64,000 bases of DNA from Escherichia coli (GCF_044324785.1 NZ_CP172127.1), one strand, 5' to 3'. Positions 61,643-64,000 are shown, counted from the stretch's first letter. Program-made: numbers and translations. The notes: generated by a model from the sequence alone, not told the origin.

Positions 61643-62890
61643 TTAGCCAAATTTAGGTAACACATTAAAGACGTTACCGAACCAGCATAAAATTACGGTT
61701 ATACCAAAGAGAATGACAATCGCCGGAATAAGATTGCCGCCCCAGACCGTGAACATCTGATTGGGAAACTTCTTGCGAGCTTTGATTGCCAGCACTGCGG
61801 GAATAATGACCGCCCAGATGGTGGCGCACAGTCCGGCACCGCCGATCCCGTAAATAAAGCCGTTCGGGAAGATCAGATACAACAACGCAGGTGGCAGGAA
61901 GGTTAACAACACGGTTTTGAAACGCCCGGCGTGGGAGTTATCAATCTTAAACAGATCCGCCAGATAATCGAACAATCCCAGCGTGACACCAAAGAACGAA
62001 CTGGCAACAGCTAAGTTGGAGAACACCAGCAGGCAAAACTCGATAATCCCATGCTGTTTGGTGCCGAGGAACGATTTCACCAACGAATCAACGTTGCCGC
62101 CTGAGGAGATTATCGCCTTAAAGCTTTCTCGCGGGATATTCCCCATCGTGCAATAGAGCCAGAAGAGATAAATCACCAGCGCCAGCAGCGAACCGAAGAC
62201 CACGCTTTTGATTAGCTTATCTTTGCGTTTGCCATAGCAAATAATCAGGCTGGGAATATTGCCGTGGAAACCAAATGACGCCAGACACACCGGCAAAGCC
62301 ATAAAGATATACGGGAAGTAAGACGTCCCCGCAGTCGTGCTGGTGGAATCGCGCAGAATGGAATAATCGACCTGGAAGAAGAAAGAACCAAACACGATCA
62401 CAAAGGAGATAATCTTCAACCCGAGGAACAATGAGGTAATACGACTGGCGGCTAAAGAGCTTATCCACAATACGCTGGCAACGAAAATGGCTGTGCAGAT
62501 CCCGACAATACGTGGATTAGCGTGATAACCCAAATTCATTGATATCGTTTCACTAATGATCGCACCATTAGCAGAGATATAGGCATAAGTGAGGATATAG
62601 AGAACGAAGGCAACGGTAATACCGCTGATAATGTTCCAGGTGTTACCGATTAAATCTTTGGTGATGGTGTTAAAACTGGAGCCGACGGGATAATTTAAAT
62701 TTGCTTCTAATAACAATAACCCGGAATGAAGCATTGAAAACCAGGCAATGATAAGGATAAAGGCACCCCAGAAAAACCAGGCACCGGCAAGATCAACAGG
62801 TAAAGCAAACATACCTCCACCAATTACTGTACCTGCTATAACCATAACACCCCAAAATGCAGAGTGCTTTTTTTCAGCTTGATCAGTCAT
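61643..62890 (-). CDS. tnaB: low-affinity tryptophan permease TnaB (415 aa)
   Basis: ORF track 61643..62974; start MTDQAEKKHSAFWGVMVIAGT at 62890 (upstream extension is read-through into IS5 flank). Confidence 0.92.
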   Translation of the reverse strand: MTDQAEKKHSAFWGVMVIAGTVIGGGMFALPVDLAGAWFFWGAFILIIAWFSMLHSGLLLLEANLNYPVGSSFNTITKDLIGNTWNIISGITVAFVLYILTYAYISANGAIISETISMNLGYHANPRIVGICTAIFVASVLWISSLAASRITSLFLGLKIISFVIVFGSFFFQVDYSILRDSTSTTAGTSYFPYIFMALPVCLASFGFHGNIPSLIICYGKRKDKLIKSVVFGSLLALVIYLFWLYCTMGNIPRESFKAIISSGGNVDSLVKSFLGTKQHGIIEFCLLVFSNLAVASSFFGVTLGLFDYLADLFKIDNSHAGRFKTVLLTFLPPALLYLIFPNGFIYGIGGAGLCATIWAVIIPAVLAIKARKKFPNQMFTVWGGNLIPAIVILFGITVILCWFGNVFNVLPKFG

Positions 62891-62904
62891 GATGCCACCT
62901 TTAG

Positions 62905-64000
62905 GGAAGGTGCGAACAAGTTCCTGATATGAGATCATCATATTCATCCGGAGCGCATCCCAGAGGGACATCATGAGCCATCAACTCACCTTCGCCGATA
63001 GTGAATTCAGCACTAAGCGCCGTCAGACCCGAAAAGAGATTTTCCTCTCCCGCATGGAGCAGATTCTGCCATGGCAGAATATGACCGCTGTCATCGAGCC
63101 GTTTTATCCCAAGGCGGGCAATGGCCGACGGCCCTATCCGCTGGAGACCATGCTGCGTATTCACTGCATGCAGCATTGGTACAACCTGAGCGACGGTGCC
63201 ATGGAAGATGCCCTGTACGAAATCGCCTCCATGCGCCTGTTTGCCCGATTATCCCTGGATAGCGCCCTGCCGGATCGCACCACCATCATGAATTTCCGCC
63301 ACCTGCTCGAGCAGCATCAACTGGCCCGTCAATTGTTCAAGACCATCAATCGCTGGCTGGCCGAAGCAGGCGTCATGATGACCCAAGGCACTTTGGTGGA
63401 TGCCACCATCATTGAGGCACCCAGCTCTACCAAGAACAAAGAGCAGCAACGCGATCCGGAGATGCATCAGACCAAGAAAGGCAATCAGTGGCACTTTGGC
63501 ATGAAGGCCCACATTGGTGTCGATGCCAAGAGTGGCCTGACCCACAGCCTAGTCACCACCGCGGCCAACGAGCATGACCTCAATCAGCTGGGTAATCTGC
63601 TTCATGGTGAGGAGCAATTTGTCTCAGCCGATGCCGGCTACCAAGGAGCGCCACAGCGCGAGGAGCTGGCCGAGGTGGATGTGGACTGGCTGATCGCCGA
63701 GCGTCCCGGCAAGGTAAAAACCTTGAAGCAGCATCCGCGCAAGAACAAAACGGCCATCAACATCGAATACATGAAAGCCAGCATCCGTGCCAGGGTGGAG
63801 CACCCGTTTCGCATCATCAAGCGGCAGTTCGGCTTCGTGAAAGCCAGATACAAGGGGCTGCTGAAAAACGATAACCAACTGGCGATGTTATTCACCCTGG
63901 CCAACCTGTTTCGGGTGGACCAAATGATACGTCAGGGGAGAGATCTCAGTAAAAACCGGAAATAACGCCAGAAATGGTGGAAAAAATAGCCTAAATAGGC
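62905..64000 (+). mobile_element. IS5: IS5-family insertion sequence, truncated by window end (first ~1.1 kb of ~1.2 kb)
   Basis: Terminal inverted repeat GGAAGGTGCGAACAAG at 62905-62920 preceded by ttag (YTAR target-like); transposase ORF begins 68 bp inside. Confidence 0.9.
62973..63965 (+). CDS. insH: IS5 transposase InsH (DDE family), 330 aa
   Basis: ORF track 330 aa [37 protein letters not shown]... matches remembered IS5 Ins5A/InsH almost throughout. Confidence 0.93.

Follow-up and report, generated by a model that had tools for sequence, protein, structure and literature searches.

Insertion of an ISKpn26-like IS5-family element immediately upstream of tnaB in Escherichia coli, at a recurrently used TTAG target, and its predicted effect on the tna operon

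An IS5-family element, which by DNA identity is of the ISKpn26 type and not IS5 proper (the K-12 isoform), lies between tnaA and tnaB in an Escherichia coli genome (GCF_044324785.1, NZ_CP172127.1). It separates tnaB from tnaA, tnaC, and the tna promoter and leaves both the tnaB open reading frame (ORF) and its Shine-Dalgarno (SD) sequence intact. The insertion is recent, and on balance, we think it probable that it lowers tna-driven tnaB expression through polarity combined with pairing of the SD, with tnaA remaining inducible. The analysis covered a stretch of 64,000 nucleotides of this genome (i.e., the window), which ends within the element. The features of the region, with coordinates counted from the first base of the window, are as follows:

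61643-62890, minus strand: intact tnaB (415 aa plus stop), encoding the low-affinity tryptophan permease
62895-62901, minus strand: SD sequence of tnaB, AAGGTGG, retained 4 nt before the ATG (direct reading)
62897-62913, minus strand: predicted RNA hairpin of the read-through transcript, CACCUU of the IS end with AAGGUG of the tnaB SD (6 bp, 5-nt loop)
62901-62904, no strand assigned: duplicated 4-bp target, copy next to tnaB, TTAG (read as CTAA on the strand of tnaB; empty-site comparison)
62901-63176, minus strand: putative 91-aa ORF running leftward out through the left terminal inverted repeat, its TAA stop (62903-62901) coming from the CTAA target
62905-62920, plus strand: left terminal inverted repeat (IRL), GGAAGGTGCGAACAAG (direct reading)
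62905-64000, plus strand: ISKpn26-like IS5-family element, first 1,096 of ~1,195 bp, cut by the window end
62973-63965, plus strand: transposase gene (ins5A/insH homologue) in its 330-aa form, pointing away from tnaB
63924-63953, minus strand: sigma-70-like match TTTACT-18-TATCAT, 9 of 12 positions (consensus scan), ~1 kb upstream of tnaB

The tnaB ORF (61646-62890) specifies 415 aa and opens with CAT, i.e., ATG on the minus strand, at 62888-62890. Its product scores 925 bits in a profile match to the NCBIfam TnaB equivalog NF007235 (cut-off, 497 bits) and is identical to K-12 TnaB at 411 of 415 residues (99%). The exact protein is widespread, occurring in 2,632 index blocks, and the genes downstream of tnaB (mdtL-yidZ-yieE-yieF) follow the order found in K-12. 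The start codon is separated from the IS end by 14 bp (62891-62904), the last four of which (62901-62904) are the TTAG used as the target. The SD is the same as at the empty K-12 site, and its first A (62901) falls inside the duplicated target. An earlier, sequence-only reading had placed the tnaB start at 62888-62890 and the first base of the IS5-family repeat at 62905, with the SD retained and the transposase pointing away from tnaB, and each of these placements proved correct to the base. An ORF extended into the IS, which would yield a 443-aa "TnaB," gave no match in an exact look-up.

Several lines of evidence place the element in the IS5 family. The transposase scores 367 bits against the curated IS5-family model NF033581, for which the cut-off is 140. 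The sequence GGAAGGTGCGAACAAG has a single match in the window, at 62905, against 0 expected by chance from shuffles. Elements of this family end in 16-bp terminal repeats (GGAAGGTGCGAAYAAG), the left one of which is seen at 62905-62920; the right end falls beyond 64000, and a right inverted repeat is present in 12/12 homologous occupied loci. In addition, the element is colinear with full copies of 1,195-1,196 bp. The name IS5 given to it in the sequence-only reading is therefore right for the family but not for the element, which differs from K-12 IS5 (the copy in K-12 strain OV2) at 77-82 positions per ~1,097 bp (~92.5% identity). By ISfinder convention, copies of the same IS share ~95% DNA identity or more, and at only ~92.5% the window element would thus count as a different named IS. 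It departs at only 4-6 positions per ~1,097 bp (99.5% identity) from RefSeq copies that the NCBI annotation pipeline (PGAP) names "IS5-like element ISKpn26 family transposase," and its assignment to ISKpn26 is based on these PGAP-named copies, not on an ISfinder reference sequence.

The left inverted repeat and the 4-bp YTAR target are those of ISKpn26, a member of the IS5 group of the family, with the window copy carrying a common 330-aa C-terminal variant of the transposase and its last ~100 bp lying outside the window. K-12 IS5 (insH/ins5A, 1,195 bp) shares the family, the architecture, the repeat core GGAAGGTGCGAA, and the target preference. The variant C-terminus results from a one-base difference near 63935, by which the ending RQWERSQ is replaced with that of the 330-aa form (11 letters, not written out here). 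Since the exact 330-aa transposase occurs in 1,251 index blocks, with many copies per genome, it represents a common IS variant. A private frameshift, a sequencing error, and a decaying transposase were ruled out as explanations of this ending, given how widespread the form is.

The insertion can be read directly from comparison with unoccupied loci. The empty site, in K-12 as well as in strains with the same flank as the window, reads cacctTTAGaggaagg and holds a single TTAG; in K-12 MG1655, it is catgatgccacct-TTAG-aggaaggctattttt, inside the 90-bp tnaA-tnaB spacer. Full-length occupied sites read cacct-TTAG-GGAAGGTGCG … CGCACCTTCC-TTAG-aggaagg, where the element, from GGAAGGTGCG to CGCACCTTCC, measures 1,195-1,196 bp, and TTAG is found on both sides of the IS in 12/12 simple occupied genomes. 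Because empty sites have one TTAG and full occupied sites have two, the insertion is best read as a canonical one for the IS5 family, in which a YTAR target of 4 bp was duplicated. It lies 10-14 nt ahead of the tnaB ATG, and on its other side the stop of tnaA is 76 nt away. The empty sites of K-12 and of the flank-identical strains thereby bear out what had been proposed from the window sequence, namely, an insertion into the spacer between tnaA and tnaB. In the window genome, the second TTAG, the right IS end, and tnaA would lie beyond base 64000. The right side expected there reads CTTATTCGCACCTTCC-TTAG-AGGAAGGCTATTTTTG, with the stop codon of tnaA at a distance of 76 bp from this TTAG.

Given that the window stops inside the IS and the second junction is out of view, the element might be a repeat copy misjoined beside tnaB during assembly, an outcome that the sequence-only reading had named as fatal to its own proposal. 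We regard this as extremely improbable. The visible junction fits a canonical YTAR target to the base, the window runs 1,096 bp into the IS (i.e., further than a typical short-read contig end would), and the same site is occupied in 13 finished genomes, with the identical two-ended structure and TTAG duplication in 12 independently finished ones.

The insertion is also young. GCA_053151395.1 is 100% identical to the window over the 7,262 bp leading up to the TTAG, and GCA_014748805.1 and ERZ21883336 are 100% identical to it over 11,904 bp; all three have an empty site and an intact tnaC-tnaA-tnaB operon. An empty site in relatives whose flanks are identical over 7.3-11.9 kb indicates that the element arrived very recently in the window lineage. 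Beyond the IS, tnaA and tnaC are intact in 11/12 simple occupied genomes, the exception being CUPF09, where an ISEcp1-blaCTX-M-55 unit stands past the IS in the place that tnaA would occupy. Judging from these relatives and carriers, tnaA is most probably intact beyond base 64000 in the window genome as well.

The same target has been used in other strains. Among 5,426 complete E. coli genomes, 13 carry IS5 or ISKpn26 at exactly this TTAG, nine in the window orientation, three in the opposite orientation, and one with a deletion into tnaB. The nine comprise six with ISKpn26 (2017.06.04CC, MB22, NCTC10444, CUPF09, DLI.5a, and APEC 102026) and three with true IS5 (K-12 laboratory strain OV2, Z1323CEC0002, and Z1323CEC0004). 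The opposite orientation is found in MB30 and STEC383 (ISKpn26) and in KCJ3K291 (IS5), so that true IS5 occupies the site in four strains, i.e., OV2, Z1323CEC0002/0004, and KCJ3K291. In TOK-001, the tnaA-side IS end is at this site, and the deletion reaches tnaB +334. A tenth match in the window orientation, in strain C1, was discarded, as it lies at a different site in the 3' end of tnaA.

These occurrences are not copies of one ancestral event. The IS copies at the site are up to 22 bases apart within ISKpn26 and ~70-84 apart between ISKpn26 and IS5, and the flanks represent no fewer than five haplotype groups, separated by up to 145 substitutions per 4.2 kb. The window flank is itself ~100 substitutions per 4.2 kb from all carrier haplotype groups, and no complete E. 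coli genome exceeds 98.5-98.6% identity to the window in the flank. For instance, strain 2017.06.04CC differs from the window at 6 positions of the IS, and its flanks are 98% identical. A conservative count, which separates the carriers by the species, orientation, and variant of the IS and by flank haplotype, gives a minimum of seven independent events.

We compared this number with a deliberately generous null, in which all 16,356 chromosomal matches are taken as independent insertions spread evenly over ~46,700 YTAR sites. Under it, seven matches at one site have a site-corrected P of ~0.004, and nine have a P of ~7e-6. The improbability of the null points to a hot spot of the IS5 family at this TTAG, to selection on the site, or to both.

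Other positions of the locus have been struck too. IS5-family insertions are found at tnaB +334 (HS30-1 and TOK-001), at tnaB +871 (W3110/DH1 type) and +876 (LR-64-1), and in the tnaC-tnaA leader of W3110, and IS1 is also found in tnaB. In 16/19 of the IS5-family insertions at the locus, the transposase is antisense to tna transcription. In laboratory evolution in rich medium, IS insertions in tnaA/tnaB swept (PMC3203608), and W3110 carries tnaB::IS5 (PMC2072959); together, these cases suggest that losing TnaB function can be advantageous in some conditions. Like the window insertion, the W3110/DH1-type allele and the other insertions of this operon involve an IS5-family element, in most cases oriented as in the window, and a loss of TnaB function is expected from them (PMC2072959, PMC3203608). 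However, those in tnaB interrupt the coding sequence (+871, +876, and +334), whereas in the window the coding sequence and the SD are intact and only the promoter is cut off.

Recurrence of this kind raises the question of whether the insertion has any consequence. It might be near-neutral, the site being a mechanistic hot spot of the IS5 family, with enough read-through into tnaB or with compensation by Mtr and AroP; we consider this unlikely, though it deserves to be weighed. Consistent with it, the carrier genomes are IS-rich (5-40 matching places per record versus a median of 1), two IS species in both orientations use the one tetranucleotide, and tnaB stays intact in most carriers. Moreover, 15 YTAR sites are available in tnaB and 4 in the tnaA-tnaB spacer, and yet one site takes most of the events, a pattern that favors a preference for the site over simple selection for the loss of tnaB. 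The search for a mechanistic basis of such a preference speaks the other way: no extended target consensus beyond YTAR emerged from 8 reconstructed targets, and in duplex stability, as estimated by a crude nearest-neighbor proxy that is not a true SIDD calculation, the site ranks 19th to 40th of 44 and is thus not marked as easily melted. That other IS types (IS1 and IS2) and other positions in tnaA/tnaB have likewise been hit or selected suggests, in addition, selection on the locus (PMC3203608).

A more far-reaching proposal, to which we give little credence, makes this TTAG, 10 nt before tnaB, a selected IS5-family "switch" site resembling those at glpFK, fucAO, bgl, and flhDC. Through repeated insertion, the import of tryptophan would be uncoupled from tryptophanase, with tnaB kept intact and possibly under IS control, so that natural populations could tune indole signaling, and the site specificity would follow from the fact that the flanks of the target resemble the ends of the IS (CACCTT…GGAAGG). 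We looked at this resemblance (CACCTT / GGAAGG) separately as a cause of the hot spot and set it aside, as other recurrent tnaB sites show no such resemblance; it remains an idea.

We return to the favored reading, in which tnaB expression is most likely reduced by polarity. A transcript from the tna promoter would enter the right end of the IS and would arrive at tnaB only after ~1.2 kb, over which it runs antisense to the transposase gene. An IS that interrupts an operon is expected to cause Rho-dependent polarity, and the leftward RNA of this IS has only short ORFs. Being poorly translated, most such transcripts would accordingly be terminated by Rho before they leave the IS. As for intrinsic terminators in the tna direction, the IS holds only weak stems of 5-6 bp (4-5 found versus 1.7 expected), which are unconvincing.

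Those transcripts that read through might also be translated less well into TnaB, as CACCUU of the IS end could pair with AAGGUG of the SD. Folding calculations place this hairpin in the minimum-free-energy structure of the occupied site, whichever way the IS is oriented, but not in that of the empty site, and in longer contexts, the predicted probability that the tnaB AUG is unpaired falls from ~0.64 at the empty site to ~0.00 at the occupied one. The folds are no better than those of shuffled controls, with z-scores that are not significant, and sequestration of the SD thus ranks second to polarity here, as an argument from modeling.

Taken together, these effects would deprive the cell of part of its TnaB and thereby lower its uptake of tryptophan when tna is induced. 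Under such induction, TnaB is the main importer of tryptophan, and it closes a positive feedback loop (PMC6443796). Its partial loss would then weaken the positive feedback on the operon and lower indole at low tryptophan, with tnaA staying intact and inducible. Some read-through is plausible, since transcription crosses an entire IS5 at fucAO, albeit in the other direction (PMC11894529), and effects of ins5CB driven from an external promoter have been reported (PMC11677980). The leftward ORFs could, if translated, suppress Rho and reopen the SD by coupling, which counts against the polarity model. That tnaB is intact in the window and in most other carriers fits recent events and fits retained function equally well.

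The sequence-only reading had allowed that an IS-borne or hybrid promoter might compensate for the lost one, and this can be taken further into a rewiring of tnaB: an IS promoter (ins5CB or another leftward start), together with coupling from the 91-aa ORF, would give low constitutive tnaB expression, free of catabolite repression and of tryptophan induction. The arrangement of the junction is suggestive in this respect. The leftward ORF (62901-63176) ends at the TAA of the target, its stop overlapping the tnaB SD 10 nt before the tnaB ATG, and the tnaB SD and ORF are preserved at the site in most carriers. One promoter-like match faces tnaB, and IS5 is known to activate its neighbors at glpFK, fucAO, bgl, and flhDC (PMC5493358, PMC11894529). 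Nevertheless, we find such rewiring very doubtful. The sigma-70-like matches pointing to tnaB are at chance level (1 found versus 0.9 expected), and the one match is missing from the near-identical IS copy of strain 2017.06.04CC. Consensus scans of the window and of that copy revealed no outward or hybrid promoter near the tnaB-facing IS end, and the 14 bp between the IS and tnaB leave no room for one. The leftward ins5CB promoter of IS5 is reported to be negligible or nearly inactive (PMC11677980), and the three insertions in the opposite orientation would require another mechanism. As for the ORF, it has no NCBIfam match, and the equivalent ORF of K-12 IS5 likewise ends at the TAA of the target.

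A comparison with the activating IS5 insertions is instructive here. At glpFK, fucAO, bglGFB, and flhDC, as at the TTAG studied here, IS5 inserts recurrently at one intergenic regulatory YTAR (PMC5493358, PMC11894529). In those systems, however, the element sits upstream of a silent promoter and acts via an ins5A fusion promoter or via bent DNA at its right end, whereas the window element is inside an operon, 10 nt before a start codon, and has its left end adjacent to the gene. Known activation by IS5 thus uses the ins5A promoter or the right-end bent region, directed (including the IHF part of that region) toward the activated promoter; here, ins5A faces away, and it is the left end that abuts tnaB.

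A catalogued IS has made a canonical insertion in a well-known operon, and the same allele is already annotated in public genomes; the finding conflicts with nothing in present knowledge of IS elements and the tna operon, and its significance is modest. In the literature on IS5/ISKpn26 with tnaA/tnaB, on the tnaA-tnaB intergenic region, and on IS5 hot spots, we found no description of this site, and its recurrent use is a small undocumented observation. The 26-mers GATGCCACCTTTAGGGAAGGTGCGAA and TTCGCACCTTCCTTAGAGGAAGGCTA are proposed as search strings for scanning other E. coli and Shigella sequences for the insertion. For the window strain, we predict lower TnaB-dependent tryptophan uptake and, possibly, lower indole at low tryptophan, and lower indole could affect indole tests and indole-mediated phenotypes. 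For the IS5 family, a single tetranucleotide between tnaA and tnaB, into which two elements have inserted in at least seven independent events, adds a candidate IS5 hot spot, and it could offer a convenient natural target at which to study how IS5 chooses its sites.

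IS5-family insertions at the tna locus show a strong orientation bias: the transposase was antisense to tna transcription in 16 of the 19 insertions found there across the loci analyzed (L001 to L013 and L033 to L036). In W3110, a second IS5 lies in the tnaC-tnaA leader region (L033, 6669 onward), besides tnaB::IS5. In TOK-001 (L035) we found one ISKpn26 flanked by the spacer site (position -10 relative to the tnaB start) on one side and by tnaB +334 on the other. The latter position is occupied by IS5 in HS30-1 (L036), and the TOK-001 structure resembles the outcome of a deletion that joined two IS copies, each at a recurrent site. 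Two further loci were noted.

L013 5306-6680: compound IS structure of strain KCJ3K291, at the same TTAG site as the window insertion
L007 6766-9159: ISEcp1-blaCTX-M-55 unit of strain CUPF09, directly past ISKpn26, in the expected tnaA position

In KCJ3K291, a full IS5 in the orientation opposite to that of the window's element adjoins a 180-bp remnant, the right end of an IS oriented as in the window, which implies two events in succession. The CUPF09 unit represents an ESBL insertion in the chromosome, at the tna locus.

The backbone of the window (56500-62904) displayed no more than 98.6% identity when compared with 5,426 complete E. coli genomes, and 100% identity to several draft or surveillance assemblies, indicating that this lineage is absent from the finished-genome set. 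Two other regions were also noted.

L021 1629-3800 and L037 to L041 4250-6421 (window's lineage): gene for a 723-aa product that has a Toxin_15 domain (PF07906; annotation, ShET2-type enterotoxin), between mnmE and tnaC
Window 48640-55548: large ORFs of 847 aa and 808 aa and a 393-aa protein, flanked by phoU and a yieH-like phosphatase

The window's lineage carries the Toxin_15 gene in the mnmE-tnaC interval; K-12 has no such gene at that position. As for the second region, the 393-aa protein has weak pentapeptide-repeat similarity, and no NCBIfam match was found for the 847-aa and 808-aa ORFs. In K-12, the equivalent position is that of the bgl region.

Two features were also noted at the IS junctions.

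L001 (strain 2017.06.04CC) 6496-6512: perfect 7-bp palindrome CCTTCCT-TAG-AGGAAGG, then CTATTTTTGT, at the tnaA-side junction of the occupied site, outside the window
Window 62901-63176, minus strand: ORF exiting via the left IS end (counterpart, L002 5302-5478)

The palindrome is a product of IS insertion, since the target flank mirrors the IS end. Together with CTATTTTTGT, it is terminator-like in the direction of the transposase, pointing into tnaA on the antisense strand. At the opposite end, in the window as in L002, the leftward ORF always terminates within the YTAR target, whose TAR serves as its stop codon. In the window, this TAA overlaps the tnaB SD and lies 10 nt short of the tnaB ATG, a placement that, if the ORF is expressed, could allow translational coupling to tnaB.
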